Assembly (NCBI GenBank): GCA_015055975.1
Contig: SVHF01000004.1
Span: 5,390 to 69,389 of the forward strand
DNA length: 64,000 nt
Direction: 5' to 3'
Source of the DNA: Clostridiales bacterium
Lineage (GTDB): Bacteria; Bacillota; Clostridia; Christensenellales; UBA3700
Made by a program: the position numbers and the translations under genes. Under the pieces are notes generated by a model that worked only from the letters and a program-made list of their open reading frames with translations, had not been told where the DNA came from and searched no databases. Below, piece after piece: positions 1 through 63,841 of this stretch; position 1 is the stretch's first letter; each line of letters opens with the position of its first letter.

Positions 1-976
1 TCAATCTATCTACATTCTTTATTACAGATATTCCATCTGCACTAGCCATAAGTACACTAACTATTGGCATTAAATCTGGGATATCTTTGCAATCTATTTC
101 AATTGAGTGTAGCTTCTTTTTTGAAACAATTACGTTATCTCCTCTAATTGCTACCTTTGCTCCCATATCCATTATGATTTGCAATATTTCTCTATCCCCT
201 TGAACTGAATCAAAGTATAGGTTATTTACTTGTGTTTCTCCATTTAATGCACCAAGTGCTAACCAAAAAGCAGCATTTGACCAATCGCCTTGTACATGCA
301 AGTCTGTTTTATTTAAATACTTTTGATTGCCTGGGACATAATAAGAATTGTTGTCTACTTTCTCAATAGATATACCAAAATATTTCAATACGTCTAGAGT
401 TATTTCTATATACTTTGATGAAACAACATCTCCAAGAATAGTTATAGTGCTATCTTTTTCAAGTATTGGAAGCGCTAACATAAGACCTGTTATATATTGA
501 GATGAAACGCTACCATTTATCTTGTAATCTCCAGGTAATAGTTTCCCAGATATATTAAGTGGTAAAGAATCTGCATCAATTGTTGCCCCATGTTCTCTTA
601 ATACATCCAACAAATCTTTAAGAGGTCTTTTTTGAAGCCCTTCTTTTCCAATAACTTTGCAAGATTTACCAAGAGCTAAAGCAATTGGCAATATAAATCT
701 TAGAGTTGATCCACTTTCAATGCAGTCTAAAACTATATCGTTTCTTTCTTTATTTGTTGGCTTTACTATATATTTATTTGGTTTTATTTCAACATCGCCA
801 TATAAAGCTTTAATACAATTTATTGTAGCTTCTATATCTTTAGATCCTGTAACTCCATTTAATTCAACTTCTTTACCTGAAAGCATAGCGCATAGAAGCA
901 TTCTATGTGCGTATGATTTTGAAGGTATAGAGTTTATCTTTCCGCCCATTAAATTAGGAGTTATAGTAGCCTTCAT
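1..976 (-). CDS. aroA: 3-phosphoshikimate 1-carboxyvinyltransferase (EPSP synthase), N-terminal ~325 aa; the 3' end runs off the window
   Basis: The minus-strand frame is open from the window edge to the ATG at 976, in a TAATG overlap with the aroB stop. My own translation reads MKATITPNLMGGKINSIPSKSYAHRMLLCA...ESGSTLRF...SSQYITGLMLALP...QGDWSNAAFW...DIPDLMPIVSVLMA, which are EPSP synthase hallmarks. It is absent from the ORF track because it has no in-window stop. Confidence 0.9.
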   Translation of the reverse strand, partial: MKATITPNLMGGKINSIPSKSYAHRMLLCAMLSGKEVELNGVTGSKDIEATINCIKALYGDVEIKPNKYIVKPTNKERNDIVLDCIESGSTLRFILPIALALGKSCKVIGKEGLQKRPLKDLLDVLREHGATIDADSLPLNISGKLLPGDYKINGSVSSQYITGLMLALPILEKDSTITILGDVVSSKYIEITLDVLKYFGISIEKVDNNSYYVPGNQKYLNKTDLHVQGDWSNAAFWLALGALNGETQVNNLYFDSVQGDREILQIIMDMGAKVAIRGDNVIVSKKKLHSIEIDCKDIPDLMPIVSVLMASADGISVIKNVDRL

Positions 977-2007
977 TAAATTAAGTCCTCAATCTTTAAC
1001 TTTTCTATTCTGCAATCTCCAAAAGCATATGGCATTACGACATTTATATATTCACCTTCTGCCTTTTTATCTAGTTTTATAACATCTATCATTTGTTGCA
1101 TTGAATATTCTTTATCTATATGCATATCGTATCTATCTAAAAGTGTTGTTAACTTTTCATATGCGCATGGTGCAAGCTTTCCTTGCTTTATAGATATATC
1201 TGAAATAATCTTTAGCCCTTTAGCTACCGCAAGCCCATGAGGGATTTCATATCCGCTCAATTTTTCTATAGCGTGAGCAAATGTATGACCAAGATTTAAT
1301 AATCTTCTTAAATTAGATTCTTTTTCATCTTCCTCAACTATGTATTTTTTGTATCTTATACATAATTCTACGAATCTATCTATATTTGATGAGCATGTAA
1401 CGCCCTCTCCTACAATGCTTTCTAATTCATTATCCATAAGCATTGCGTATTTAATTCCTTCTCCCATACCGTTTTTATATTCCGTACAAGGAAGTGAATC
1501 AAGTGTCTTTAAATCTATAATGACTTTAATTGGTTGGTAAAATGCACCAACAAGGTTTTTACCATTTGGTAAATCTATAGCGGTCTTACCACCAACTGAT
1601 GAATCTATCATAGCAAGAAGTGTTGTTGGAACTTGTACAAAATCCACACCTCTCATATATGATGCAGCAACAAAGCCTGCCAAATCTCCAACGACTCCAC
1701 CGCCAAGAGCTACGATTAGATCGTTTCTTTTAAAGTTTTGTGATGCAAGATATTCAAGTATTTCTGAAAATGATTTAATGTTTTTACTCTTTTCGCCGTG
1801 AGGAATTGTGAACATACAAACATTGTATCCAGCTTTTTTTAGCGAATTGAAAACAATATCTCCATATAGTGATGCAACTATATCGTCTGTTACGATACAA
1901 ACATTACATAAAGATTTTATCTTTAAGATATCTTCGCCGATTTTAGATAATAGGTTTCTTCCTATTTCAATATCATAAGATTTTGATGCATTTACATTAA
2001 TTACCAT
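976..2007 (-). CDS. aroB: 3-dehydroquinate synthase
   Basis: 343 aa. The GGGVVGDLAGFVAASYMRGVDFVQVPTTLLAMIDSSVGGKTAI block is typical of AroB. It overlaps tyrA by 11 nt. Confidence 0.92.
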   Translation of the reverse strand: MVINVNASKSYDIEIGRNLLSKIGEDILKIKSLCNVCIVTDDIVASLYGDIVFNSLKKAGYNVCMFTIPHGEKSKNIKSFSEILEYLASQNFKRNDLIVALGGGVVGDLAGFVAASYMRGVDFVQVPTTLLAMIDSSVGGKTAIDLPNGKNLVGAFYQPIKVIIDLKTLDSLPCTEYKNGMGEGIKYAMLMDNELESIVGEGVTCSSNIDRFVELCIRYKKYIVEEDEKESNLRRLLNLGHTFAHAIEKLSGYEIPHGLAVAKGLKIISDISIKQGKLAPCAYEKLTTLLDRYDMHIDKEYSMQQMIDVIKLDKKAEGEYINVVMPYAFGDCRIEKLKIEDLI

Positions 2008-2872
2008 TATTAATTCTCTCTTGTAATTTCTTTGCTCTTAGTGATTCTACTTGTTCTTTTGCTATTCTTCCTTCATCCAAAAGCTTTTCTAATTCTTCGC
2101 AATTGTTATCCATAAGTGCCTTTTTAAATGCAGATAGATTTTCTTGTAGATTGTCTATTTGACCAACCAAGTAATCTCTATTTTCTAGCATTAATTCTGA
2201 CCACATTTGAGGATTCAATCTTGCGACTCTTGTCATATCTCTAAAAGAACCTGCAGAAAAACCATAGTGAGTTGTTGCAAGTGGGTTTTTGATATAACTT
2301 GAAGACACGATATGTGCAAGTTGAGATGTAAATGAAATCATCTCATCGTGTTCTTCTGGAGTTGTTATAACAATACCTTCAAAACCAATGCTTTGTGCAA
2401 ATTCTTTCATTGTAACTAAAGCTTCGATTGGAGTTTTAATTGGAACAATAAGCATAGTAGATTTCTCAAACAATGTTGCTTGTGAATGAGAAAAGCCACT
2501 AAACTCTCTCCCTGCCATTGGGTGACCACCCATAAATATAATGTCTGGATATTTTTCATGCATTTCAAACATCTTTTTGCAGATGCCTCTCTTTGTACCA
2601 CCACAATCTACAACTATACAACCCTTTTTCAAAAGTGGAACCCACTCATCCAAAGCTTCTTCAATAGCTCTTGGGTATAAAGTTATAATAAGCATGTCTA
2701 ATTCTTTTGCATTCTCTTTTGATAAACGCGCATGAATTGCTTGGCAAAGCTCAGCTTTTTGCATTGTAGATTCATGTAAAGATAATCCATAAACCTTATT
2801 GTCTGTATATTTAGAGATGGCTCTTCCTAATGAGCCTCCGATTAGTCCTAACCCAATGATACCTATATTCAT
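1997..2872 (-). CDS. tyrA: prephenate (arogenate) dehydrogenase
   Basis: 291 aa. N-terminal Rossmann motif NIGIIGLGLIGGS followed by a prephenate dehydrogenase-like core. Sits in the aro operon. Confidence 0.85.
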   Translation of the reverse strand: MNIGIIGLGLIGGSLGRAISKYTDNKVYGLSLHESTMQKAELCQAIHARLSKENAKELDMLIITLYPRAIEEALDEWVPLLKKGCIVVDCGGTKRGICKKMFEMHEKYPDIIFMGGHPMAGREFSGFSHSQATLFEKSTMLIVPIKTPIEALVTMKEFAQSIGFEGIVITTPEEHDEMISFTSQLAHIVSSSYIKNPLATTHYGFSAGSFRDMTRVARLNPQMWSELMLENRDYLVGQIDNLQENLSAFKKALMDNNCEELEKLLDEGRIAKEQVESLRAKKLQERINNGN

Positions 2873-2873
2873 A

Positions 2874-3887
2874 TTAGTTTCTTACCTTTCCAACAAGTGG
2901 TAGCATAACGTCTACTTTCTTTACTACTTCTTCGAATTGTTCTGGACGAAGTGATTGTGCACCATCGCAAAGAGCGTGTGGTGGATCGTTATGAACTTCA
3001 ATAATTAAACCATCAGAGCCTGCACCAACAGATGCAAGTGACATTGGTTCAACTAATCTTGCAATACCTGACGCGTGAGATGGGTCAACAATAATTGGTA
3101 AGTGAGTCATCTCTTTTACAAGTGGAATAGCAGACAAATCTAGTGTGTTTCTTGTAGCTGGTTCGAATGTTCTTATACCTCTTTCGCACAAAATAACGTT
3201 TTCGTTTCCTTCGCTCATGATGTATTCAGCACTCATTAACCATTCTTGAATAGTATTAGCTAAGCCTCTCTTTAGAAGAATTGGCTTATTTAATTTACCA
3301 ACAGCTTTTAATAAATCGAAGTTTTGCATGTTTCTTGCACCAATTTGAATGATATCTACATCAGCAAATAGATCAATATATTTTTCTGCCATAAGTTCTG
3401 TACAAATTGGCATGCCTGTTTCTTTCTTTGCTTCAAGAAGCAATTTTAATCCTTCAGCTTTTAATCCTTGGAATGCGTATGGAGAAGTTCTAGGTTTAAA
3501 TGCACCGCCTCTTAAGATATTAGCACCTGCTGCTTTTACAGCTTTTGCAATGCCGATGATTTGTTCTTCTGATTCAACAGAACAAGGACCAGCAATTAAT
3601 TGGAAGCTATTGCCGCCAAATTTGTGGCCACATACATCAACTATTGTATCTTGAGGATGGAACTTTCTATTTGCTAGTTTAAATGGTTCTTGGATACGCT
3701 TTACGTTTTCAACAATATCTAATGATCTAATTAGATCAATATCTATTTTTGATGTATCACCAACCAAACCTAAAATTAGGTTCTTCTCACCTTTTGAAAC
3801 GTCGATTTTAACGCCTTGTGATTTAATCCATTTTGTTAGGGAATCTAACTGTTCCTTTTCATAATCTTGTTTTACAATAATAATCAT
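2874..3887 (-). CDS. 3-deoxy-7-phosphoheptulonate (DAHP) synthase, type I-beta with a short N-terminal regulatory-type domain
   Basis: ORF 2874..3989 trimmed to the ATG at 3887, which is preceded by GGAGAAGA. Carries [22 protein letters not shown] and IVDPSH motifs of the KDSA/DAHP I-beta family. The upstream in-frame extension crosses a terminator. Confidence 0.88.
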
Positions 3888-3904
3888 ATCTCTTCTCCAT
3901 ATAT

Positions 3905-3933
3905 AAAAAACCGCCAACTTTTTTGTGGCGGCT
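3905..3933 (-). terminator. intrinsic terminator / candidate attenuator directly upstream of the aro operon RBS
   Basis: The minus strand reads GCCGCCAC-AAAAAAG-TTGGCGG followed by TTTTTT. It lies about 20 nt before the DAHP synthase RBS. Confidence 0.6.
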
Positions 3934-3982
3934 TTAATAATTTTTATCCTTGTATTATTTAATCTAGAAAACCGCGCACAAA

Positions 3983-4045
3983 TTAACAACTATAATAATA
4001 GCCGTAAAAGTTCCATGTATAGATGTTAAATAAACGTGTTTTCAT
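3983..4045 (-). CDS. candidate leader peptide [20 protein letters not shown] (20 aa, 8 aromatic residues)
   Basis: Hand translation of the minus strand from 4045 to 3983. It lies between a sigma70-like promoter and the terminator at 3905-3933. There is no Shine-Dalgarno sequence, and the ATG sits only about 9 nt after the -10 box. Confidence 0.4.
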
Positions 4046-4054
4046 ATCGATGTA

Positions 4055-4084
4055 ATTATAGTTTTTATCCTTTAATTTTGTCAA
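4055..4084 (-). promoter_or_regulatory. sigma70-type promoter (TTGACA, 18-nt spacer, TATAAT) for the aro leader/operon
   Basis: Perfect -35 (4084-4079) and -10 (4060-4055) hexamers on the minus strand. Confidence 0.5.
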
Positions 4085-4101
4085 TAATGTTTTGTATTAT
4101 T

Positions 4102-4416
4102 TTATAGTTTCTTAATTATTTCTCCTAAATCTCTTTTTCCAAATAATATTCTAACTATAACAATTCTCTTATTTACCATTTTATAAAAAGCAATATATTG
4201 ATCAATATAAATTTTTCTAATTATCGTGTCTTTTAGAATAGTATTATCTAACAACATTCCACTTTCTGGATACTCACAAATAATTTGTATCTTCTCTTCG
4301 AATAATTGTATAAACTCTATAGCAGCAGTTTTATTACACAACGTATTCGCTATGTAATTCACTATTATGTCTAAATCTTTCTTTGCCCTGCTAGCAAATT
4401 TATATTTATAGGCCAT
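4102..4416 (-). CDS. type II toxin, RelE/ParE family
   Basis: 104 aa. The sequence pattern (FASRAKKDLDIIVNYI ... IVRILFGKRD) is typical of ParE/RelE. It overlaps the upstream antitoxin gene by 11 nt. Confidence 0.8.
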   Translation of the reverse strand: MAYKYKFASRAKKDLDIIVNYIANTLCNKTAAIEFIQLFEEKIQIICEYPESGMLLDNTILKDTIIRKIYIDQYIAFYKMVNKRIVIVRILFGKRDLGEIIKKL

Positions 4417-4663
4417 ATTTCTCCTTGATTTCTTTAATTACTAACTCTCCGTCTTCAATTCTTCCAGCCTTTATATCTTCTAAGCCTTCTGCTAACATTA
4501 CCGCTTCATAAGCATCTCTCATTATTTTTTCATAATACTTCATATCCATGACAACTAAAGATCCATATCCATTTTTTGTAACAAACACTGGCTCCTCTTT
4601 TTCGTGACACATCTCTTCTATTTTTACCGTATCTTTTAAATCTCTCATTGGTACTATTTGCAT
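4406..4663 (-). CDS. type II antitoxin, Phd/YefM family
   Basis: 85 aa. The N-terminal part (PMRDLKDTVKI...EPVFVTKNGYGSLVVMDMKYYE) looks like Phd/YefM. A GGGAGGA RBS precedes it. Confidence 0.8.
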   Translation of the reverse strand: MQIVPMRDLKDTVKIEEMCHEKEEPVFVTKNGYGSLVVMDMKYYEKIMRDAYEAVMLAEGLEDIKAGRIEDGELVIKEIKEKYGL

Positions 4664-4695
4664 TTTTTATCCTCCCTACTGCTCACAGTTCCTTT

Positions 4696-4719
4696 TGTGT
4701 GTCTAAATTATAGCACACA
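4696..4719 (-). promoter_or_regulatory. TA promoter with a flanking inverted repeat (candidate autoregulatory operator)
   Basis: TGTGTG (4696-4701) and CACACA (4714-4719) bracket a minus-strand TATAAT at 4712-4707, about 45 nt upstream of the antitoxin ATG. Confidence 0.4.
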
Positions 4720-4753
4720 TTTAGCCACAATACAATAAAGCATATAAGTAATA

Positions 4754-5038
4754 TTAAACTATTTCGTATATTTTAAGGGATTTATCAAATCTAGATTTAT
4801 TCAAAACATCCAAAAGTGCTAATTCTTTGCATCTTGATGCATGCTTTTCTAAGCACTCTTTGTTTTCCCATCTTTCAAAAAATACAATTTCTTTATCTTC
4901 TTCGTTATATTCTGAAATATCAAAAGCAATACAACCCTTGTCAACATCTTTAGACATTTTTGCATGTTCAATTGCTGCTTCCATAAATATTGGAACATCT
5001 TTTTCTTCTAATTTATTTGTACATACTACGTATATCAT
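4754..5038 (-). CDS. antibiotic-biosynthesis-monooxygenase (ABM) fold protein
   Basis: ORF trimmed to the ATG at 5038 with a GGGGTGA RBS. About 94 aa with a ferredoxin-like ABM pattern (FFERWENKECLEKH). Confidence 0.6.
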   Translation of the reverse strand: MIYVVCTNKLEEKDVPIFMEAAIEHAKMSKDVDKGCIAFDISEYNEEDKEIVFFERWENKECLEKHASRCKELALLDVLNKSRFDKSLKIYEIV

Positions 5039-5085
5039 AATTTCACCCCTTTTCAATAATACCATACTTTAAGTATAATAAGGCT

Positions 5086-5316
5086 ATGGAAGATTTAAAT
5101 AAACCACTGAACGAAGACGAAAAAGATTTAATTATTAATTGGTTCATCAAAAACGAAGGACCAAGCGGAGAATCGCAGATTAAAACTTTTAGATTAAGAG
5201 ATAAATTAGATAAATCTCCAAAGACTTCTCGTGAATTAATAGAAACAAATATTAAAGCAAATTCTTATAAGATAGATTCTATGAGCTTTTATATGCTACT
5301 TATGGCCCATATTTAA
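5086..5316 (+). CDS. hypothetical 76-aa protein
   Basis: An ORF only, with a weak RBS. It converges on, and overlaps by 4 nt, the end of the 1594-aa gene. Confidence 0.3.
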   Translation: MEDLNKPLNEDEKDLIINWFIKNEGPSGESQIKTFRLRDKLDKSPKTSRELIETNIKANSYKIDSMSFYMLLMAHI

Positions 5317-8300
5317 ATAGGCGTTGTTTTGTGTTCAACAAACTCAATTGTTCCCATTATCAATCTAATTGAATAATTCATCGTAACATCTTGATTATTA
5401 CTATCGATGATTTTCAATTCTTCTATTTCGTTATATGCAGGTTCTCCAATTGTTACTTGTATTTCCTTGAATGTACATTCTATGCGATCGCCATTTTGTA
5501 AATAACCTTGAGTTACATTTGCATATCTTCCAACTATTTCATCGCCAACAATTTGCTTAAACGAATTTGTTGTTATTGTTATAACTTTAGGATTTGTTTG
5601 CAAAGCGATGCCCTTTATAAATACAACATAATTATTTGTTACATCTTGATTTGAATAATTCTTTACTATCCAATGTGCGTTTTGCTCTAAATCTCTACCA
5701 TATACAATTCCAGCATTTAAAGTTTCCAATGTGTCAATTAATTCAACTCTATATACATTAGATGGCTTTGTTGCGGCAACTATTTCATAGTTGTAGTTAT
5801 AGTAATAATAATCAACCTCGTATTTTTGCCCATTATAACTTCTCGATGATGCATAAACCATCAATTCAATAATATCTTTGCTTGTAACTATAACTTCGCC
5901 TTTAGATGTTATGATGTTATATTTTTCTGTAACATCTTCGCCTTTTTTATTGAACAATCTAAACGACCGAATCTCACTTTCACTTGTTCCAACCTCTGTA
6001 CGCTTTCCATATACTTCACAAGAATATGTATATCCTTGGCTCAATAACATTTCAAATAAGCCATGTCCAGATTCTGTTTCAACTTCGTTTTTTGCAACCA
6101 ATTCTGTTCCGTTATATTTTGCATAAGTTCTTACAGGATGAATATACAAATTCTTCACACTATAATAATCTTTTATGCCAGCATGATTGCCAGGTACAAT
6201 TTCTCCTTCTCCTGCTTCGCCGCCTTCTCCCGATTCGCCGCCTTCACCGCCAGAACCACTGCCTGATCCGCCTGCACCGCCAGAGCCTCTACCATCTGGG
6301 GCTGTTACTTCTACCATAACCCAGCCAACGCCTTCAATATATACTTCTACCCATGCATGAAGATTCTTATCTGTAATTGTTGTAATTTTGTTTGCTTCAT
6401 CAATATATACATAAGCCCCGCCTATAAATCTTGCTGGGATTCCCAATGCTCTATAAAGCATTGTTGCGGCCGTTGCATAATGACGACAAACACCTTCTTT
6501 GTAATCTCTTAAGAATGCTATTACAACATCTGATTCTGAATCTAATGATTTATCATAATCCATGTTGTATTTAGCTGAGCTTTGAATGAACTTAGCAACT
6601 TTACTAATAATTGCTGGATCTTCTTTTGTAAATCCGTTTTCTACAATAATTGAATTCAAATATGTTTTTAATCTGCCTTCTTCTAGTGTTAAGAAGTTTG
6701 CGTTAACATAATCTCTATATATAACTTCGTTATTTGCTAAAACGCCTGTTAAATGATTGTCCAATCTTATTGCAACATCTGTTTGTGTAATAAAGTGACT
6801 AAAGCTATATCCATCAACAGATTGCTCTAAATCTATCAAATCACCATCCATTAAATGCTCTGTATCTGTTGATAGATAATAAGGTCTAAATGGCATGTAT
6901 GTAAATGAATTGATAATCATGCTATTTGCTTGAGCTTCAATATTCTTTAGGTTAGTACCTGTTATATATTCTTGTGTATGAGAACCATCTAACACAATTG
7001 ATTCAGGGTTTATGATATCAAAGACTCTGCCTTGATATTGACTATATGAATATGACTTCAAATAGAAAGCTCCAACCTCACTTGATTGTACAGCCGCTAT
7101 AATTAGTGGTTCATCGCCATATCCTTCACCTTCTCCACCGCCGCCGGCAGGGTCCACTACTGTCAATGTCCCGACTTCAAATGTAACAGTATAATAACTT
7201 GGGTTTGCAAAATAAGCTCTAACAACTGCGTGGTTTGGAGATTGACCTATATTTGTTCTTTGGCCAATAACTGTTACTTCAACTATGTCACCTTCAAATA
7301 CTGGATTTTCAAATACTGATGTATCCAATCTATAATGATCATATTTCAAAGGTTCGCCATCATATATCTTTTCTTTGCTTCCTGTTATAATCTTCAATAC
7401 TCTTGGAATTATTTTGATAGCGCTTTTTGCATATGTAATATTATATACATCTTTAACGCTAACATTATTTGCATCTAGTATATCTATGATTGAACTTATA
7501 GAACTTTCCGTTTCCCCAATTTCTGTTCGACTTCCGTCAATTGTTACATTTACAACATGATCTCCTTCTAATAAGCCTGAGCCCAAAATGTCAATATCTG
7601 TTGGTTTATGTTCTTGTTTATCAAATTGCGCTTCGACATATTGTGGAGAAATTACAATTGGTCGTTTGTTTATAACAAAATCTTCTTTATAATCTTCACC
7701 AAACACAAGGTTATAGCAATCTCTATTTGGGGTTATTGTATCGCCTGCATAGATATCAGCAGCTTGAATCCATGTTTTATATGTGCCAATATCTCTAAAT
7801 GAGCCATATACTTGAGACACTACAATTCGATCCTCTTGTGCCAATGACTTACCGTTTGTAATTTGATAATCCTTGCTTGGTTGATGATATTGTCTATCAT
7901 AAATTATTTCTTCATGAATAGGAGTAATAACGATTGTTTTAACATTGACTCTGACTTCAACTGGAGATAATGCATCAAGTCCTAAATCATAATTTGCCGT
8001 AAAGTCTTTAGTGTCATCAAATATTGATGAGATTCTTAGACTTATAATCTTTGATTGACACGCGCCAACTCTTGTTTGGTAGTTGTCAAATACAACATCT
8101 CGTAATATATGATCTGTACAAAGACCGCTTGTGCTAAATGCTGGGCTATGTTTAAGTCCATCATAATCTCCATTAAAACTTAAAAGCGATAGATTTAATG
8201 CTTTTTTATTAATAGTAAATGTTGCTTTTGAATATTCTTGAGGAACGATTATATTGTAATAGTCCTGATATACATAATATCTAGATCCGCCTGCTCTAAT

Positions 8301-40682: not shown

Positions 40683-41903
40683 ATGATTCTCTCTCATAAG
40701 ATTAGAATTTATCCTAATAATAAACAGAAATCTCACATTGAGAAATCTTTCGGCGTTTCTAGATTTACATATAATTGGATATTAGAAAAGTTCAATCAGC
40801 ATCAAGCAACTAATACACCTTTTTATCTTTATGAATTAAAGAAAGAGTTTAATGCTATAAAAAAAGTATCATTTCCTTTTGTTTGCGAAGTTTCTAAATA
40901 CGCATCTCAAGAAGCATTTATCGATTTTAAAGACGCTCTTCATGCATACTACAATAAAACCAAGAGGCATGTAACGTTAAAATATAAAAGCAAAAAGGAC
41001 CCTCATCAAAATTATTATGTGGGCGGAGATTTAATTCGTGTATTTCAAAAAGAAGGCATTGATAAAGATTATCTTAAATTGCCAAAAATGAACGCCTTGA
41101 AGCTCTCTGAAAAAATTCGATTTAATGGACATATCGTTGGAGTAAGAATTATAAGAGAACATAATATATATTATGTTGTTGTAAATATTAATACTGAACA
41201 TCATATGAGTTCTATATCAAAGCCCAATTTCTCTGTTGGGATAGATTTGGGCATTAAACACCATATAACTTTATCTAATGGTCTTCAAATTGATTACCCT
41301 AACCTCTCTAGCCTAATAAATAGAATTAATTTTATGCAACGTATATTATCAAGGAAGAATCATCCGAGAACCAAAGATGACAAGACCCCTTGTTCAAATA
41401 ATTACATAAAGCAAAAGGCCAAACTCATAAATCTATATCGAAGGCTAGATAATGTTAAGCGCGATTATGAGAAAAAAGTAACGTCGATACTTGTAAACCA
41501 CTATAGTGATATATGCATCGAAGATTTATCTGTTGAGCATATGAAACACAATCGTTTTGTCGCTAAAAACTTACAGTTCATGAGTTTTAATAAAATAAGA
41601 ACAAATCTCGAGTATAAATGTAGTGAATATGGATCTAATTTACATATCGCAAATCGATTGTTTGCATCATCAAAAATATGTAGCAATTGTGGAGTCGCTA
41701 AGACAAAGTTAAAGCCTAGCACTCGTATTTATAAATGCCATAATTGCGGATTGTCTATTGATCGAGATTTAAATGCAGCGATAAATCTTAAAAACTACAT
41801 AGGGCGGGTTACGTCCGATATTATGCCTTTGGACTTAGATTCATTTATTGCAGATTGTAAAAAATCAAATGTAAATGTTTTTAGGATTGAAGAAGGAAGA
41901 TAG
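40683..41903 (+). mobile_element. tnpB: solo TnpB (IS200/IS605-family OrfB, IS1341-like); no tnpA gene
   Basis: 406 aa. The RuvC triad candidates are present (VGIDLGIKHH, ICIEDLSV, DRDLNAAINL) together with the zinc ribbon CSNCG...CHNCG. Element ends are not determined. Confidence 0.85.
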
Positions 41904-41984: not shown

Positions 41985-42062
41985 TGGTAGCGGCGGTCGG
42001 ATTCGAACCAACGATATCCGAGGTATGAACTCGGCGCTATAGACCAACTAAGCTACGCCGCC
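41985..42062 (-). tRNA. tRNA with a CAU anticodon (elongator Met or lysidine-type Ile2)
   Basis: The reverse complement folds as a cloverleaf: acceptor GGCGGCG/CGCCGCT, anticodon stem CCGAG/CTCGG, loop TTCATAC, T-loop GGTTCGAATCC and an encoded CCA. Confidence 0.85.
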
Positions 42063-42070
42063 ATATCTTT

Positions 42071-42145
<75 letters not shown>

Positions 42146-43172: not shown

Positions 43173-43247
43173 GGCCCCATGGTCAAGCGGTTAAGACATC
43201 ACCCTTTCACGGTGGTATCGTGGGTTCAATTCCCGCTGGGGTCACCA
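43173..43247 (+). tRNA. tRNA-Glu (UUC)
   Basis: Acceptor GGCCCCA/TGGGGTC, anticodon loop CTTTCAC, T-loop GGTTCAATTCC and an encoded CCA. Confidence 0.88.
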
Positions 43248-46378: not shown

Positions 46379-46927
46379 ATGGATAACACAGTATCAGTAG
46401 TTATAGGGTCTTGGGGCTCATATAACGAATGTAACGAAAGAGCTTTAGGCTCTAAATGGATTAAGTTAAACGACTATGAATCTTATGAAGACATAGAAGA
46501 AGAACTTAAAAACGAAGGATTTGAACTTGAAGGAATAGACGAAGAGCTATTTATTCAAGATATCGAAGGACTTCCAGCAAATGATGTTAATTGGGATTAT
46601 ATGCATCCTGAACGTTTATTTAATGTATTAAAAGCTAGTGGCGTTCTTGATCATAAATACCAATACAAAACTATGTGTGCTTACTTGGAGGTTAGAAGTT
46701 GGAATGACTTTGAAGATAAAGTGAACACTCATGAAGATAGATGGGATTCAGATGTATATACATACGAAGGATCTTGGGCTGACTATGGAGAAGAAATGTT
46801 TAGAAATATGGGATATAACCTTCCAGAACATTTAGAGAATTTCTTTGATTTCGAAGAATACGGTAGATACATAGGTAGTGATTATGCCGAGGAATACTCA
46901 GAAGGCATCATTGAAATTGTAGCGTAG
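46379..46927 (+). CDS. ardA: ArdA-type anti-restriction protein
   Basis: 182 aa and highly acidic. The N-terminal IGSWGSYNEC...WI and C-terminal GIIEIVA parallel Tn916 ArdA as I recall it. Confidence 0.75.
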   Translation: MDNTVSVVIGSWGSYNECNERALGSKWIKLNDYESYEDIEEELKNEGFELEGIDEELFIQDIEGLPANDVNWDYMHPERLFNVLKASGVLDHKYQYKTMCAYLEVRSWNDFEDKVNTHEDRWDSDVYTYEGSWADYGEEMFRNMGYNLPEHLENFFDFEEYGRYIGSDYAEEYSEGIIEIVA

Positions 46928-47987: not shown

Positions 47988-48560
47988 ATGAAAATAAACT
48001 TAGAAACAAAAACAAAAGAGCAGGAATTAATCCTGCACTATCTTGAAGAAAATGCAAGCGAAGTATTAGCTGACAAGATTAACAATGGAACGCCCTACAC
48101 AAAGGATGGCAAAGAACTAATAAATAAGAAGGATTTTGAATCCTTTATGAAATATGCTTGTGATGAAGCAAAGAAACTTGCAGAGAAAGGAGCTTCTTAT
48201 GCTTGCATTGAAGATGCTACTGTTTACCAATGGGCTATTCACTACTTTGAAGAAGATACTATCTTAGGAACTTTATATAACCAAGACGGAACTTTATATG
48301 AAGAACCAAAGAAAGAAATACCAAAGGCTACTCCAAAACCTGTCGTTAAAGAAGAACCAAAGGTTAAACAACTATCTTTATTCGATATGATTGAGCAAAA
48401 CTTTCCACCAAAAGATCAACAAGATGTAGAAGAAAAAGCCGATACATCACCTAAAAATGAGGTTATTGACTTTGAAACAGGTGAGGTATTCGAAACACCA
48501 AACGAAACAGATAGCACTATTGCTACTTTAAACGCTTTATTCGGAGGTTCACAATGCTAA
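47988..48560 (+). CDS. PcfK-like protein (the family that includes the Cas9 inhibitor AcrIIA9)
   Basis: 190 aa with a GGAGGTG RBS. The N-terminal domain ending in ATVYQWAIHYFEED matches my recollection of PcfK-like proteins. A PcfJ-like gene follows, as on pCF10-type elements. Confidence 0.65.
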   Translation: MKINLETKTKEQELILHYLEENASEVLADKINNGTPYTKDGKELINKKDFESFMKYACDEAKKLAEKGASYACIEDATVYQWAIHYFEEDTILGTLYNQDGTLYEEPKKEIPKATPKPVVKEEPKVKQLSLFDMIEQNFPPKDQQDVEEKADTSPKNEVIDFETGEVFETPNETDSTIATLNALFGGSQC

Positions 48561-49834
48561 TAGAAAAGATTAAACCAATACCTAAATATATAGAGAAACA
48601 AATAATAACGAAATATGAGCAAAGCAATTATGCTGAACACTATTATTCATATCTAACAAAGAATGATGGCGAACTAGTAGAAATGCTAGTTGCTGTAAAG
48701 CCATATAAAGGAAACATCTATTTAAAGCAAGTCGCTTGTCATGGAATAGACTCAGAAGAAGCTTTTATAAAAGATATGAACTTTACATATCTTGCTGGCT
48801 ATCGAGTTGGCTGGTATGCCGAAGGATTAACTAAACAGCAAAAATATTGGGAAGATGGTAGATGGTGGAAATCTTATGATGAATACTATAACCCATACTC
48901 AGTTTTACTAAATCCTGAATATGCTAATAAACAAAAAGAATTCAAATATGCTCTTGTAGAAAAAGTGTCTGGAGTATACATATTTACATATCTTAGACTG
49001 TTTAGAGAATTCCCTGAGATGGAATCTATCGAAAAGATGGGACTTGCTTGTCTTATATATTCTAAACAGATCTTAAAGAAATTTAGAAAAGATACTACAT
49101 TTAGGAAATGGCTTTATAAGAATAAGGCAAACATTAACCAAAAGAGATATAGGATTGGAGATATTATATCAGCATACAACAAGCATATAGAGATAGATTC
49201 ATATTGCGAATGGGCTGACTTTAAACGCAAATACAAAGGCGTTTCTCTTAATGGATTTAAAGATTTAAAATCTTTCTTCAATTACATCAAGAAACAAGAT
49301 GCAAACGTAGAATCATATAAAGATTATATGTTAGCTTGCCAAGAACTTGAGATAGATACTTCTCTACCTAAAAACTATATGCCACATAATTTCAAGTATT
49401 GGCACGATGTTAGAATAGACCAACTAAATGCTTTAAAAGCCGAAAGAGATAGAAAAGCAAGAGAAGAACTATATAACAAGTTTGCTATTGTATCTAACAA
49501 ATATTCTTCCCTACAAAAGCTAAAAGGAAATATGTATGTAGCCATCATACCAACTAGCCCTGCTGACTTAATTCAAGAAGGCGATATTCTACACCATTGT
49601 GTAGGTAGAATGAACTATGATGCTAAATTTTCAAGAGAAGAAACCCTTATATTCTTTATTCGAGATATACAAAACATTAAACAACCTTTGGTTACTATTG
49701 AATATTCTTTACGTGAACATAAAGTCCTTCAATGCTATGGAGATCACGATACAAAACCAAATGAACAAATAGAAAACTTTGTTTTCAAACAATGGCTACC
49801 TTATGCCAATAGACAATTAAAGAAAATCGCTTAG
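48554..49834 (+). CDS. PcfJ-like protein
   Basis: 426 aa. The C-terminal block LIQEGDILHHCVGRMNY...TIEYSL...VLQCYGDHDTKP resembles the PcfJ domain as I recall it. Confidence 0.65.
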   Translation: MLIEKIKPIPKYIEKQIITKYEQSNYAEHYYSYLTKNDGELVEMLVAVKPYKGNIYLKQVACHGIDSEEAFIKDMNFTYLAGYRVGWYAEGLTKQQKYWEDGRWWKSYDEYYNPYSVLLNPEYANKQKEFKYALVEKVSGVYIFTYLRLFREFPEMESIEKMGLACLIYSKQILKKFRKDTTFRKWLYKNKANINQKRYRIGDIISAYNKHIEIDSYCEWADFKRKYKGVSLNGFKDLKSFFNYIKKQDANVESYKDYMLACQELEIDTSLPKNYMPHNFKYWHDVRIDQLNALKAERDRKAREELYNKFAIVSNKYSSLQKLKGNMYVAIIPTSPADLIQEGDILHHCVGRMNYDAKFSREETLIFFIRDIQNIKQPLVTIEYSLREHKVLQCYGDHDTKPNEQIENFVFKQWLPYANRQLKKIA

Positions 49835-50160: not shown

Positions 50161-50167
50161 TTGAAAA

Positions 50168-50190
50168 AGCCAGGTCTTTCGATCTGGCTT
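50168..50190. terminator. bidirectional hairpin between the convergent cassette and the R-M genes
   Basis: AGCCAGGTC-tttc-GATCTGGCT. Confidence 0.55.
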
Positions 50191-50674
50191 AAATTCTATC
50201 TCCATATGGCAACGCTTTTATATAATTCTCCATATAACTCCAATCCGGACTTCCATCTTTTGTTGCTGGCATTTTTAAAATCGTTTCATTTATTAAATCC
50301 ATTTTAAACGATCTACCATAACTATATTTATATCTTTCTTTTTCAATTAATGATTTAACAAATAGTGCAGTATATTTATTAATCCAATCAGCTCTACAAA
50401 CTACTATATGATCACCCGTTACAAAATCTTCTTCTTGATAAAAAATAGTAGAAGTTGTGTCACCAATGATTAAAGCACCACCCTTTTCTTTACTTGTTAC
50501 ACTTGTTTTATCAATATAGCAATCACAACCATTTTTGTTTTCCGTTCTAGTAATAAATCGTATTCTTTCTTCACTTGGAGAATCAAAATACTCTATATCA
50601 TTCTTTACATATGCCGTTGCTTTATATATTTTGGACAACAAATCGCCAAACCTAAACTCTTTCCAATCATTCAC
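50189..50674 (-). CDS. R-M specificity subunit, second target-recognition half (no ATG or RBS of its own; reading frame continues upstream to the G9 tract)
   Basis: 161 aa from a GTG codon. It begins NDWKEFRFGDLL and ends MPATKDGSPDWSYMENYIKAL, a TRD-plus-conserved-region layout like an HsdS half. Confidence 0.6.
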   Translation of the reverse strand: MNDWKEFRFGDLLSKIYKATAYVKNDIEYFDSPSEERIRFITRTENKNGCDCYIDKTSVTSKEKGGALIIGDTTSTIFYQEEDFVTGDHIVVCRADWINKYTALFVKSLIEKERYKYSYGRSFKMDLINETILKMPATKDGSPDWSYMENYIKALPYGDRI

Positions 50675-51185
50675 ACCATGAATAACTGATTGATACCCCC
50701 CCCCTATTCTTAGTCGTAATAGGATTAGAGTTTAGAGTTTTTATGTAATTATCCATAAAAGCCCAATCAGGCTCTCCATCTTTTGTCGCAGGCAATTTAA
50801 TTACTATCTTTTTAGAATTACCAACTCTACATTGTCTACCATATGCCCACTTATAATTTTCATTAAAATTAATAACTTGAGCAACAAAAAGCCCGATCCT
50901 ACTATTCATTTTAAACTTAGGAATAAATATGTTTACGTCTGAAGTAGCACAAAAAGGTTCTGGTGCATAAAAGGCTGTACAACCGACCTTTCCAGTAACA
51001 ATGCAATTGCCCTCAAAATCTGGAGCTAAGTCTATATATGAACCAATTCCATTGTTTTCGTTTGAAGCAGAATAATATGGAGTTTTTCCTTCTTCATATT
51101 CCTCTGGATAATGATATTTCCCTGGTATTATATTGAAATAATCATATAATAAAAATTCTTTCCAGTTTTCTGTATTAAGACTCAT
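50667..51185 (-). CDS. R-M specificity subunit, first target-recognition half (terminates 25 nt after the G9 tract)
   Basis: Start at the ATG at 51185, after GAGGGG. Carries NTENWKEFLLYDYF...LPATKDGEPDWAFMDNYIKTL. The tail NRGGVSISYSWCE looks out of frame. Confidence 0.65.
   Translation of the reverse strand: MSLNTENWKEFLLYDYFNIIPGKYHYPEEYEEGKTPYYSASNENNGIGSYIDLAPDFEGNCIVTGKVGCTAFYAPEPFCATSDVNIFIPKFKMNSRIGLFVAQVINFNENYKWAYGRQCRVGNSKKIVIKLPATKDGEPDWAFMDNYIKTLNSNPITTKNRGGVSISYSWCE
50696..50704. repeat. C9 (coding-strand G9) homopolymer at the junction of the two specificity half-genes
   Basis: It is the only 9-nt G/C homopolymer I saw in this AT-rich window. Confidence 0.95.
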
Positions 51186-53004: not shown

Positions 53005-53093
53005 AATAAAACTCCTAAACGCAATTATTATAACACGCACGCACGAAGTATAACAATACCGAAAATGTCACCTTATTAACCTACTAAACTGCT

Positions 53094-53439: not shown

Positions 53440-54357
53440 TTATGAACTCTTAGTTTTCAATAATGGTTTAACTTCCTTAGACATATTACCTAAGAATTCC
53501 CCTTCATCCCAACATTCAAAATCATCAGGAAGAACCATACTCTTTTCATACTTGCCTATTCTTCCTAAATCATCATCACTGTTAATGTCAGAAACTAAGA
53601 ACATTGGTAGCCCCTTGGAATGAATAACCTTTTCATTTGTCTTAGATATGTATTTCATGATGTAGCTTATTGCCATCTCATATGCTTGCTTATGCTGTAT
53701 TATTTCTCTAAAATCGTTTCTTCCAAAATGCTCTTCAAAAAATGTATTATATGTTGTTTCTTGCATCTTATGTTGTTTTGTACTGTAATCTTTTCTAACT
53801 TTTAATTCTCCAACCATCTTTCCTTCAGGAATATATAACATCCCATGGAAATGTAATCTTTCATTTGGAGAGATCTCCCATACGCCCATATATTTCCAAC
53901 CATATTTTTTCTTATACTTACACAACTTATTTATTAGCCCTCTTTTAAAAGATGCTTCTGTATGCTTTTCATCATCATATGTAAATGTTACGAAATAGTT
54001 AAACTCATTCATAAATGCCTTTCGCATAAAAGTTCTTTTCTTTCTTGCTATTTGATTCTGTCTACGTTCAGCTTCCTTTTCTACTAATTCTCTTGCCCTT
54101 TGCTCAGACATACATTGTTCCATTAATTTCTCTACTGCTTTTTCCTTTCGTTTCTCTCCTTTCAATTCACTACTATCTTCATAAGCTTCTTTTGCTGCTT
54201 CCTTTTCTTTATCCACAATCTCTTCTTTTTCTTTCTCGCCAATAATATCTAAAAGATTGTCTGCCATCTTCTTTGGCTTTCTAGGTTTGGCTGGATGATA
54301 TGTAATAGCAACATAGTGAGATCCATCATGGTATACTTTCGCTGCTGGATACATCAT
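53440..54357 (-). CDS. HUH-superfamily rolling-circle replication initiator (two-Tyr type)
   Basis: Start at the ATG at 54357, after GGAGGTG. Motif I is FVTFTYD, motif II (HUH) is RLHFHGMLYI and motif III is YIMKYISK (Y-x-x-K-Y). Confidence 0.8.
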   Translation of the reverse strand: MMYPAAKVYHDGSHYVAITYHPAKPRKPKKMADNLLDIIGEKEKEEIVDKEKEAAKEAYEDSSELKGEKRKEKAVEKLMEQCMSEQRARELVEKEAERRQNQIARKKRTFMRKAFMNEFNYFVTFTYDDEKHTEASFKRGLINKLCKYKKKYGWKYMGVWEISPNERLHFHGMLYIPEGKMVGELKVRKDYSTKQHKMQETTYNTFFEEHFGRNDFREIIQHKQAYEMAISYIMKYISKTNEKVIHSKGLPMFLVSDINSDDDLGRIGKYEKSMVLPDDFECWDEGEFLGNMSKEVKPLLKTKSS

Positions 54358-62281: not shown

Positions 62282-63817
62282 CTATAAATTAATCCAACAT
62301 GCAGGTCGAATTCCTCCTAGCGTATTTGTCTTTTTCCCAGTTGAACTCAATGCACTTGTGCCATAAATATTACCATCGGCCCCGATATATTTATTACTAT
62401 TATCGCCAGTGGTATCTCTGTCAGGGGAACGCAATCTCCAATCACTATATTCTGAACTATACTTAATTAATCCTTGGCACTTTGCATATGACGTAGAAAC
62501 CGTTTGAGTTGATTTTAATTCAAAATATGTATTCACTTCTGAATATGACAACAAAAACAACTTATCATAACATGAATTACATTCATAATAACTTGGAGAC
62601 CCACCATACGAAGCTGAACTATTATCAATCATTGTTGCTTGAAGTATACTTTCTTCGGCATCTACAAAAACTTCTGCACAAAACGATTCTGCCAACCAAA
62701 TACGAATATCTGACAATTCATAATTGTTTGCATATCCACTTCCACCATTATGAGTAAAAACTCCAGATGTTTTTGCTGAATAAAATACTTGAGCATCTAA
62801 TACTATTGATGATATTAACAAAGCTTTACCATCTGATACATTTAATACTTCCCATTTAACTGGAGCCCACTTAAACCAATAAAAAGTGTTTTTGCTAAAG
62901 CCATTATTTGTTCTATATTGATTGTCTTTTGAATAATATATACCTCTATATTTTTCTCCATTTAAATAGTAATCTTGGTACCACATATTTGAGTCATTTG
63001 TACACCTATTCCATACAGAAGAATCGAAGCTAATTGTGTTTTGTCCTGATTTTGATTGTAATGCGTTAATTATTGATGTATTTTCAACTAACTCTTGAGG
63101 ATATCTTCCATAATAAATAATATTAGAATCTAATGAATCGTATTCGTATAATTTATATTTTTCCATTGTAATTGTCACATCAACAGCTGGCATTGAAAAA
63201 CAATAAGTATTGCCGTATTCTGTAACCCCGTCACTTCTTATCCATTTAATTGAATACCCAGCTGGAACATTATTTGCTTCTAAAATAACATTTTCGTTAT
63301 AATCATAACTATCATCAATGCTATTAAGTAAGCTAATACCATCTGCGCTTGCTTGATTATTTACTATTAATTTATGTTGTTCAACCAACAAAATAACACT
63401 AATTGACAAATCATACTTTGGCATTTTAAAACTATATGTACTACCAGTAAATGTTTCCCCATCACTTCTTGTCCAAATAATATTAGATCCAACTGGAACC
63501 CCTACTGAACGAAGAAACACTTCAGAATTATACTCTTTTGAAAAAGAATCTTGGCTTAATATATTAATTGCACCACTTTGTATCGCGATACTATTATTAG
63601 CTGTATTATTATTAATGGTTAAAGTATAATACTCAACATCATCATTGTCATTATTTGAATTGTCATTGGTTTGACTGTTTGCGTCGTTATTTGAATTGTC
63701 ATTGGTTTGAATGTTTGCGTCATTATTATAATTAGATTTGCCTGATGAACATGCAACCGCAAAAAGCATACTAACCGCAATTAATAAAACAATAGAAATA
63801 GTTATAACCTTTTTCAT
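62282..63817 (-). CDS. lipoprotein with an Asn/Asp-rich linker, two InlB-B-repeat-like domains and a DUF6273-like C-terminal domain
   Basis: Start trimmed to the ATG at 63817, after GGAGAG. Lipobox LFAVAC. Domains of the type YTLTINN...WTRSDGETFTGSTYSFKMP. The C-terminus GGIRPACWINL matches my recollection of DUF6273. Confidence 0.7.
   Translation of the reverse strand: MKKVITISIVLLIAVSMLFAVACSSGKSNYNNDANIQTNDNSNNDANSQTNDNSNNDNDDVEYYTLTINNNTANNSIAIQSGAINILSQDSFSKEYNSEVFLRSVGVPVGSNIIWTRSDGETFTGSTYSFKMPKYDLSISVILLVEQHKLIVNNQASADGISLLNSIDDSYDYNENVILEANNVPAGYSIKWIRSDGVTEYGNTYCFSMPAVDVTITMEKYKLYEYDSLDSNIIYYGRYPQELVENTSIINALQSKSGQNTISFDSSVWNRCTNDSNMWYQDYYLNGEKYRGIYYSKDNQYRTNNGFSKNTFYWFKWAPVKWEVLNVSDGKALLISSIVLDAQVFYSAKTSGVFTHNGGSGYANNYELSDIRIWLAESFCAEVFVDAEESILQATMIDNSSASYGGSPSYYECNSCYDKLFLLSYSEVNTYFELKSTQTVSTSYAKCQGLIKYSSEYSDWRLRSPDRDTTGDNSNKYIGADGNIYGTSALSSTGKKTNTLGGIRPACWINL
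63651..63722. repeat. 2 x 36-bp tandem repeat within the lipoprotein linker (encodes NDANxQTNDNSN)
   Basis: Copies at 63651-63686 and 63687-63722 differ at 2 positions. Confidence 0.9.
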
Positions 63818-63841
63818 AAATAAACTCTCCATATTTTTGTG

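Follow-up and report, generated by a model that had tools for sequence, protein, structure and literature searches.

The closest described counterpart of the switch considered here is NgoAV, a Type I restriction-modification (R-M) system of Neisseria gonorrhoeae (hsdS1/hsdS2). There, a poly-G tract between the recognition domains of the specificity (S) subunit switches the target from GCAN8TGC to GCAN7STCA (PMC9577141): a 1-nt change fuses or splits the S gene, natural isolates mix tract lengths, and the truncated and full-length subunits differ in specificity rather than forming a simple ON/OFF pair. In a REBASE survey by Atack et al., every simple repeat of an hsdS gene is located in the stretch that separates its two domains (PMC7383803). 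The same source cites, as its ref. 32, half-size HsdS subunits of the EcoDXXI / EcoR124 type, which dimerise and recognise a symmetric bipartite target; as described there, these are laboratory or transposon-made Type IC truncations and not a reversible natural switch. Frameshifts that alter specificity, and do not just turn the enzyme OFF, are known also from the Helicobacter pylori Type IIG enzymes JHP1272 / HP1353-54 with their two homopolymer switches, in which nuclease and methylase are fused; the tract is located inside a single-chain enzyme and swaps its C-terminal recognition segment, changing 1-2 bases of the motif (PMC3936762).

On the side of the enzyme, the closest relatives are BcgI and BsaXI, Type IIB enzymes of (RM)2S composition (PMC3592470, PMC11997821, PMC9159934). 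When the S subunit of BsaXI is cut down to TRD1-CR1, it provides, together with RM, a new symmetric specificity, AC N5 GT (PMC9159934). By analogy, the change proposed below for a natural S subunit would be of the same kind as this engineered one.

The locus described here, located in a 64-kb stretch of DNA (hereafter, the window), shares features with both groups. As in BcgI and BsaXI, a nuclease-methylase fusion (RM, 609 aa) is encoded next to an HsdS-like two-domain S subunit (331 aa when fused); as in NgoAV, a slippable homopolymer, here G9, lies inside the S frame between the recognition domains. NgoAV has separate HsdM and HsdR subunits and long coiled-coil conserved regions, whereas the window system has one nuclease-methylase chain and short helices, and NgoAV belongs to host-adapted pathogens, whereas the present family occurs in gut anaerobe Firmicutes and on mobile elements. 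Unlike the tracts of the H. pylori Type IIG enzymes, the tract in the window sets one versus two domains in a separate S subunit; a difference in specificity between the truncated and full-length forms, as reported for NgoAV, is proposed here by analogy. Both the kind of switch (NgoAV, the Atack survey, H. pylori Type IIG) and the class of enzyme (BcgI, BsaXI) are known. The new details are a tail of the truncated S that is conserved in the alternative frame, for which we found no description in the available text on NgoAV, and stand-alone one-domain relatives. In the literature searched, we came across no natural poly-G switch described for a Type IIB S gene or for gut Firmicutes, and a preprint on phase variation in the gut does not mention homopolymers.

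The operon and its interrupted specificity gene

By its sequence and predicted folds, the locus is a BcgI/BsaXI-like two-gene Type IIB R-M operon and not a Type I system, given the fused RM protein, the fold match to BsaXI, the PADLOC calls and the lack of HsdR (Table 1). The RM gene, for which the start at 53004 is the one used in a public gene call, matches Pfam N6_Mtase over residues 286-529 (E 1.8e-32), with an NPPY motif, and the PADLOC model of fused REase-MTase proteins, REase_MTase_IIG (E 2e-52). The 280-residue N-terminal extension contains D53, E66 and K68, none of which varies among 26 homologues; the AlphaFold model gives residues 1-140 a pLDDT of 81-94, and the alpha-beta-beta-beta-alpha-beta order of the N-terminal domain is the strand-helix order of PD-(D/E)XK nucleases. 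The single RM polypeptide is therefore predicted to combine a nuclease with a gamma-class N6-adenine methyltransferase. The best fold matches of the RM model in the PDB are the RM chains of BsaXI (E 7e-12 to 4e-11), ahead of Type I HsdM. In phmmer searches of RM, its N-terminal domain and S against the PDB, no BsaXI or BcgI match was obtained, so the link to BsaXI is one of fold. A search of NCBIfam gave no family-level name.

Table 1. Features of the R-M operon, in coordinates of the window
Feature	Coordinates	Strand	Basis and remarks
Promoter-like site, TTGTTA-18-TATAAT with upstream TG	53027..53056	-	10/12 matches; consensus match only; just 5' of the RM start
RM (A) subunit gene, 609 aa	51175..53004	-	Predicted N-terminal PD-(D/E)XK-like nuclease domain and gamma-class N6-adenine methyltransferase (NPPY)
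S1, truncated specificity subunit of the G9 state, 172 aa	50667..51185	-	ORF; the same protein is recorded in independent assemblies
G9 homopolymer (C9 on the plus strand)	50696..50704	-	Proposed slipped-strand switch in the linker of the S gene
Dual-frame segment after the tract	50670..50695	-	G9 (+1) frame, VSISYSWCE tail; fused frame, linker YQSVIHGV
S2, second recognition domain and C-terminal conserved helix	50189..50674	-	Methylase_S match; ends in PDWSYMENYIKALPYGDRI
Hairpin GCCAG-N10-CTGGC followed by TTTTT, candidate operon terminator	50164..50188	-	Read by eye; directly after the S2 stop

A Type I assignment was rejected: the methylase has its own N-terminal nuclease-like domain, and no HsdR-like, helicase or ResIII gene is found near the operon in the window or at the loci of the relatives, the neighbours in the window being PcfJ, ArdA, a Rep protein and ORFs without a Pfam match. 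Both halves of the HsdS-like two-domain S gene that lies next to RM, and that is split by G9 in the window copy, match Pfam Methylase_S (PF01420; E 1.4e-11 and 2.4e-8) and are labelled by PADLOC as 'Type II specificity subunit' (Specificity_II). Together with the fold match to BsaXI and the invariant D53, E66 and K68, these Pfam and PADLOC hits bear out the BcgI-B/HsdS-type system that the original prediction had read from the letters alone.

The ATG of S1 overlaps the RM stop by 11 nt. The S1 product consists of recognition domain 1, the conserved helix PDWAFMDNYIKTL, a linker and the tail GGVSISYSWCE, with the C-terminus KNRGGVSISYSWCE directly before the stop. The tract, CCCCCCCCC on the plus strand, encodes Gly-Gly in the linker between this first conserved helix and the second recognition domain. 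In the window (GC 33%), it is the sole run of at least 6 G or C, and the expected number of runs of at least 9 in an i.i.d. sequence of this length is 0.017, in agreement with the original impression that the homopolymer is conspicuous. The sequence and the frames likewise agree with the original prediction that the tract splits a two-domain specificity gene, with one small correction: the TGA stop of S1 lies 26 nt past the tract and not 25. At G9, S2 is intact and yet out of frame with S1, and the frame 3' of the tract stays open to the TAA at 50189-50191. In silico, tracts of G8 or G11, the two lengths originally expected to fuse the halves, join them into one S protein: with the ATG at 51185 as start, it has 331 or 332 aa, and with a further ATG upstream, at 51191, 333 or 334 aa. 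G7 and G10 give a third, differently truncated product that ends in GGINQLFMV. In the same in silico comparison, extended over G7-G12 for the window and to 11 relatives, tract length interconverts full-length and truncated S, with the rest of the coding sequence intact.

The predicted structure of the fused S (pLDDT 88.9) includes two recognition domains, each followed by a short helix, with the tract-encoded glycines in a low-confidence linker at about residues 152-172; in fold comparison, this model resembles HsdS structures and the S subunit of BsaXI. For the second half, the original prediction held in one part and not in the other. There is indeed no ATG and no Shine-Dalgarno-like run in the window sequence ahead of the GTG; an in-frame GTG (50674-50672) is, however, located 4 nt before the S1 stop, overlapping the end of S1, just ahead of WKEF, the conserved start of domain 2, and an in-frame TTG is present at 50641-50639. 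These two codons are taken as starts by two public gene callers. The equivalent start codon is missing in 11 of 13 other tract-bearing alleles, including all the other out-of-frame ones; because only one other allele has a start codon there, independent translation of S2 is not a feature of the family, although it is possible for the allele of the window itself.

The putative terminator after S2 implies that the second domain would be co-transcribed in every state of the tract. An automatic scan with a loop limit of 8 nt listed no terminator, the 10-nt loop of this hairpin being above that limit. Genetic code 4, under which a public translation (P0122) reads through the S1 TGA, was rejected: long ORFs are unbroken under code 11, and code 4 lengthens the three TGA-terminated ORFs by only 3-6 codons.

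The operon sits in an island that begins after tRNA-Glu and carries ArdA, PcfJ and a rolling-circle Rep protein; in relatives, the operon adjoins genes for AbiE, Kiwa and mobilisation. A single RM protein cluster, P0211, accounts for 367 contigs, and megablast of the operon against phage and plasmid collections gave no match. In the scan of species representatives described below, the best RM identity was 78%, and the nearest RM relatives belong to uncultured Clostridia MAGs. The gene content of the window also includes an FeFe hydrogenase.

Tract length in the window allele and in its relatives

A homopolymer sequencing error, which the original prediction named as the trivial alternative, is ruled out by the recurrence of G9 in an assembly of independent origin: a JGI contig (3300019375), close to the window in sequence but with 3 substitutions and, in another gene, a deletion of 2 nt. 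G9 is also present in an ENA contig (ERZ27247008) identical to the window across 12.5 kb, and the exact 172-aa S1 product is recorded in several assemblies. An exact look-up of the products that this allele would encode with G5-G14, among about 15 billion proteins, returned the G9 product only. Since G9 alone is on record for the exact allele (3-4 assemblies), we infer switching in the strain of the window from its relatives.

More than 1300 S homologues were identified, mostly two-domain proteins of 327-348 aa, several with Gly-Gly at the junction. At the same codon position, diverged relatives carry tracts of G6-G13, for example, G7 in a common gut allele (L001-L008), G13 in L009 and G9 in L159/L160. 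A search in which each species was represented by one genome, and which was blind to the S linker because the RM protein served as its query, yielded 80 loci, mostly from gut Clostridia, about 70 of them with enough downstream sequence. The junction contains G6-G11 in 11 of these ~70 informative loci. The S frame is kept in 7 of the 11 and broken in the other 4 (L018, L019, L022 and L061); in all four of the latter, adding or removing one G restores in silico a full S ending in LPYGDRI. A DNA-pattern scan of metagenomes identified 58 tract-bearing loci of the family, 34 in frame and 24 out of frame. The out-of-frame loci comprise 14 in the -1 state and 10 in the +1 state with the conserved tail described below; as the -1 state is no rarer than the +1 state, the out-of-frame loci are not all in the selected state.

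Near-identical alleles differ in tract length. When alleles were clustered such that the 250-nt flanks on both sides were at least 97% identical, cluster 1 (n=20) included one G7, 16 G8 and three G9 tracts; cluster 2 (n=10), three G7, five G8 and two G9; cluster 3 (n=5), one G7, three G8 and one G10; and cluster 4 (n=4), four G7, all out of frame. Among the 20 sequences of cluster 1, no indel other than that at the tract occurs in the 1179 aligned columns, the alignment covering the S region, upstream of which the RM segments are divergent. The alignment of the 10 sequences of cluster 2 has two indel sites in 2036 columns, the tract, which is the only coding one, and an intergenic site, along with 160 substitution columns. 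The out-of-frame lengths are seen in contigs with 10-27x coverage, according to the contig names, alongside some contigs of low coverage. These are metagenome consensus sequences, in which lengths are compared between samples and reversibility within a clone is not visible.

The tract-length polymorphism to be expected at orthologous loci of a phase-variable gene is present in the relatives (G7-G10 among near-identical alleles). As seen in assembled sequences, this length variation is the pattern of a contingency locus, and it is very likely that the tract truly is a frame switch of variable length throughout the family. Some alleles may be effectively fixed in a truncated state, considering that the window allele is found with G9 only and the cluster 4 allele with G7 in 4 of 4 samples.

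The alternative frame and one-domain specificity genes

The segment that follows the tract can be read in two frames. In the fused state, it encodes a poorly conserved, flexible linker (YQSVIHGV in the window), with low pLDDT in the fused model; in the G9 state, it encodes the C-terminal tail of S1. We compared the three frames across 20 nt after the tract in 12 distinct sequences from loci found via proteins only; loci found with the DNA pattern, which fixes positions, were left out to avoid circularity. Over these ~20 nt, the three-base periodicity fits the +1 (truncated) frame (Table 2).

Table 2. Conservation by reading frame after the tract. Entropy is the mean at codon positions 1/2/3, syn/nonsyn counts codon differences, and amino acid identity is the mean pairwise value; the codon-pair counts come from related sequences and are not independent events, so they are descriptive, although the contrast is large
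Frame	Entropy, positions 1/2/3	Syn/nonsyn	Amino acid identity
Fused	0.39/0.92/0.36	22/218	0.45
+1	0.36/0.39/0.92	123/111	0.76
-1	0.92/0.36/0.39	36/227	0.51

The tail in the +1 frame has the consensus [V/A]-x-I-[T/S/C]-Y-[T/S]-W, as in VSISYSW (window), VLICYSW (L009), AIITYSW (L035), VRITYSW (L061) and the common form VRITYTW, and the peptides of the fused frame, such as YQSVIH, CLFATL, QLSPIL and YRSHTL, look like free linker. Some alleles are fixed in the fused state, their tract having decayed by substitution (for example, L015, L021, L027, L062, L077 and L082); in the hidden frame of these alleles, an ITYTW that is eroding can still be recognised. Two of them come from cultured relatives, Zhenpiania hominis BX12 (L077) and Anaerostipes hominis BG01 (L082), where G6 or no tract is left.

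One-domain S genes with this tail are found also on their own. In several stand-alone operons (L012, L158 and L161/L162), the RM gene is intact, the S gene comprises one domain and ends in the tail, and no second domain follows. L158 has no G run longer than 3 and an unrelated gene next to it, and L161/L162 has G6, a remnant WEF and then a terminator-like hairpin. Relatives of the L012 S1, 68-99% identical, retain the tail (LGVQISYSWID, EGVKITYSWND, RGVRIMYSWND and RGGAIVTYTWDK), and none of the 51 relatives of the L012 recognition domain reaches the length of a two-domain S, 327-348 aa; ARAGORN detected no tRNA downstream of the L012 half-gene. A further subclade contains natural one-domain S genes of about 200 aa.

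The +1-frame tail thus evolves as if under purifying selection, and the G9 (+1) state is, judging from these alignments, probably not simply OFF. One-domain and two-domain S both exist as stable genes, and tract-bearing alleles can move between the two forms. The conserved tail in the alternative frame and the stand-alone one-domain genes elsewhere favour specificity switching over a plain ON/OFF switch. The phase-variable R-M system of the original prediction, which allowed for either of these, is accordingly supported by the relatives, with the balance leaning to specificity switching.

A probable switch between one- and two-domain subunits and its alternatives

The likely explanation, in our view, is that slipped-strand events at the tract switch a Type IIB operon, carried on a mobile island, between specificity based on two domains and specificity based on one. 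In this model, slipped-strand mispairing during replication would alter the length of a hypermutable poly-G in the linker codons and thereby set the frame of an S gene designed as domain 1, helix, linker, domain 2, helix. With 3n+2 G (8 or 11), a two-domain S would be made, leading to cutting and methylation at an asymmetric bipartite site. With 3n G (9 or 12), translation would stop 9 codons past the tract and give a one-domain S with the conserved tail, which, by analogy, would most likely pair with itself and direct the enzyme to a symmetric site composed of two domain-1 half-sites. With 7 or 10 G, the truncated S would lack the conserved tail, perhaps a true OFF or a weak state. By the same analogy, we infer dimerisation of the truncated S and a change of target sequence; dimerisation is an assumption, given that the conserved helix is short in this Type IIB family. 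We rate it as somewhat more plausible than not that the product of the G9 state has activity and that its specificity is a different, symmetric one. We would only tentatively, with less than even confidence, go further to a three-state switch in a segment of overlapping code, in which symmetric and asymmetric specificities alternate, along with an OFF state, and the +1 tail is needed by the one-domain S. To the same, limited extent, the ~26 nt might then be a throw-away linker in the fused frame and a selected C-terminal tail in the +1 frame.

The main competitor is a plain ON/OFF switch, in which the truncated S is inactive at G9, with neither cutting nor methylation, and only G8 or G11 is active. 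The frames behave as such a switch would, in most alleles the second half lacks a conserved start, being OFF carries the least risk where nuclease and methylase share one S, and out-of-frame states without the conserved tail are frequent (14/24). The apparent purifying selection on the +1-frame tail is not accounted for by inactivity, nor are the stand-alone operons of RM and S1, with intact RM, in several diverged lineages; furthermore, one-domain S is active in BsaXI, where it was engineered (PMC9159934), and in NgoAV, as a natural form (PMC9577141). Taken with this evidence, a plain ON/OFF switch seems unlikely. We give still less credence to a stably split gene, with G9 fixed, S2 restarting at the GTG and the halves assembling non-covalently to retain the same asymmetric specificity. 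G9 is found in every assembly of the window allele, the GTG that precedes WKEF and the S1 stop was chosen by one gene caller, and the hairpin after S2 suggests that S2 is co-transcribed; but no Shine-Dalgarno-like sequence lies ahead of this GTG, the start has no equivalent in most other tract-bearing alleles, TRD2-CR2 of BsaXI could not be expressed alone (PMC9159934), and the assemblies are few and may all derive from one clone-like lineage.

It is very unlikely that the tract, at a length fixed in DNA, acts as a recoding signal and not as a DNA-level switch, with slippage of RNA polymerase or of the ribosome producing a mixture of truncated and fused S from one genotype. Meaningful protein is encoded in both frames 3' of the tract, and there are alleles fixed at an out-of-frame length, as slippage would have it, but length polymorphism is seen directly at the DNA level among near-identical alleles, and tract-free versions, fused or truncated, apparently work with one product. 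Such slippage is compatible with the DNA-level switch and does not exclude it. The least credible explanation, with hardly any weight, is artefact or decay, that is, an assembly error in tract length or an S gene that is being lost as a pseudogene: sequencing errors are frequent in homopolymers, and in formal terms the gene is broken, but beyond the recurrence of G9 in independent assemblies, both halves are otherwise intact Methylase_S matches, RM is intact with its catalytic residues, and the same architecture, with intact downstream domains, is found family-wide.

The two-/one-domain switch model leaves unexplained how a cell survives a switch, and this counts against it. Hemimethylated DNA is the reported preference of methylases of the BcgI type (PMC6789123), so unmodified sites could be left open to the cell's own nuclease when specificity changes suddenly. 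Three-state switching with nuclease and methylase on one chain would accordingly imply some way to avoid self-restriction, and the family thus raises the question of how a specificity switch is survived when the nuclease shares the S subunit.

The switch between one- and two-domain subunits would extend homopolymer specificity switches, well documented in the Type I systems of a few pathogens, to a Type IIB family that travels on mobile and defence islands and is often met in Firmicutes of the human and animal gut. For annotation, S genes split at G tracts in this Type IIB family should not be labelled pseudogenes, and the natural pairs of one- and two-domain S are a resource for the engineering of Type IIB specificity. 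Activity of the truncated form would equip a single strain with two restriction barriers and two methylomes as alternatives, and, in that case, phage defence, plasmid / ICE transfer and methylation-based binning of metagenomes would be affected, and possibly also gene regulation. Should the three-state reading hold, a widespread Type IIB family of gut commensals would routinely alternate between asymmetric and symmetric specificity.

Genomic setting of the R-M operon

The region at window positions 43300-64000 is likely an integrative mobile element. Several large ORFs in it, of 706, 662 and 351 aa, have no Pfam matches. The restriction-modification (R-M) system and the anti-restriction gene ArdA share this one element. 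The gene for tRNA-Glu directly precedes the start of the island that holds the R-M operon, and together with two tRNA-Met genes it adjoins an IS605-family TnpB gene, which encodes Cas12f1-like TNB, OrfB_IS605, and HTH domains.

Features of the likely integrative mobile element and of the stretch before it
Feature	Position (strand)	Location
TnpB gene (IS605-family)	40683-41903 (+)	before the island
two tRNA-Met	41985-42145 (-)	before the island
tRNA-Glu	43173-43247 (+)	directly before the island
ArdA	46379-46927	element
DUF4313		element
PcfJ	48554-49834	element
rolling-circle Rep protein (REP_ORF2-G2P)	53440-54354	element
large ORF, 706 aa	54425-56545	element
large ORF, 662 aa	57076-59064	element
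large ORF, 351 aa	59673-60728	element
DUF6273 protein	62282-63832	element

A common gut allele of the system (P0068 allele; loci L001-L008, about 600-8200) sits in a defence and mobilisation island that carries AbiEi/AbiEii, the RM-S operon, KwaA/KwaB (Kiwa), TnpV, and Mob_Pre. One of these loci, L004, has an intact specificity (S) gene, but its RM (nuclease-methylase) gene is disrupted, with separate fragments encoding 146 and 33 aa.

Comparison with JGI sequences

Relative to the window, the near-identical JGI contig L011 lacks 2 nt of the PcfJ gene (48722-48723), a deletion that would shift the reading frame; the L011 annotation accordingly splits PcfJ into a 352-aa and a 92-aa ORF. The truncated first half of S (S1) ends in a TGA codon (50667-50669), which is read through as Trp (...SWCEWLERV) in P0122, a public protein that JGI translated from this gene, so genetic code 4 was used for the contig of P0122. 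For the window, code 4 was rejected: TGA terminates just 3 of the 44 long ORFs and interrupts none, and accordingly code 11 fits.

Variation and possible horizontal spread of the family

The first recognition domain of the window's S protein recurs, with up to 83% identity, as the C-terminal, second domain of other S proteins (P0012, P0016, P0084, P0087, P0092, P0096, P0107, and P0124). Thus, domains move between both S positions, in a case of natural circular permutation or shuffling. One subclade of the R-M family (L044, L048, L049, L051, L052, L053, L074, and L090) encodes, downstream of the RM match, natural one-domain S subunits of about 195-205 aa that start with MDYF and end with PDWxYMxxYIKSLPY; these half-size genes contain no tract.

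RM homologues with 45-68% identity are present in metagenome-assembled genomes labelled Methanobrevibacter, Bacteroidaceae, Rickettsiales, Thermoguttaceae, Prevotellaceae, and Mycoplasmataceae/Ureaplasma (loci L053, L059, L075, L078-L081, and L085). This diversity of labels suggests wide horizontal spread of the system or else binning errors.
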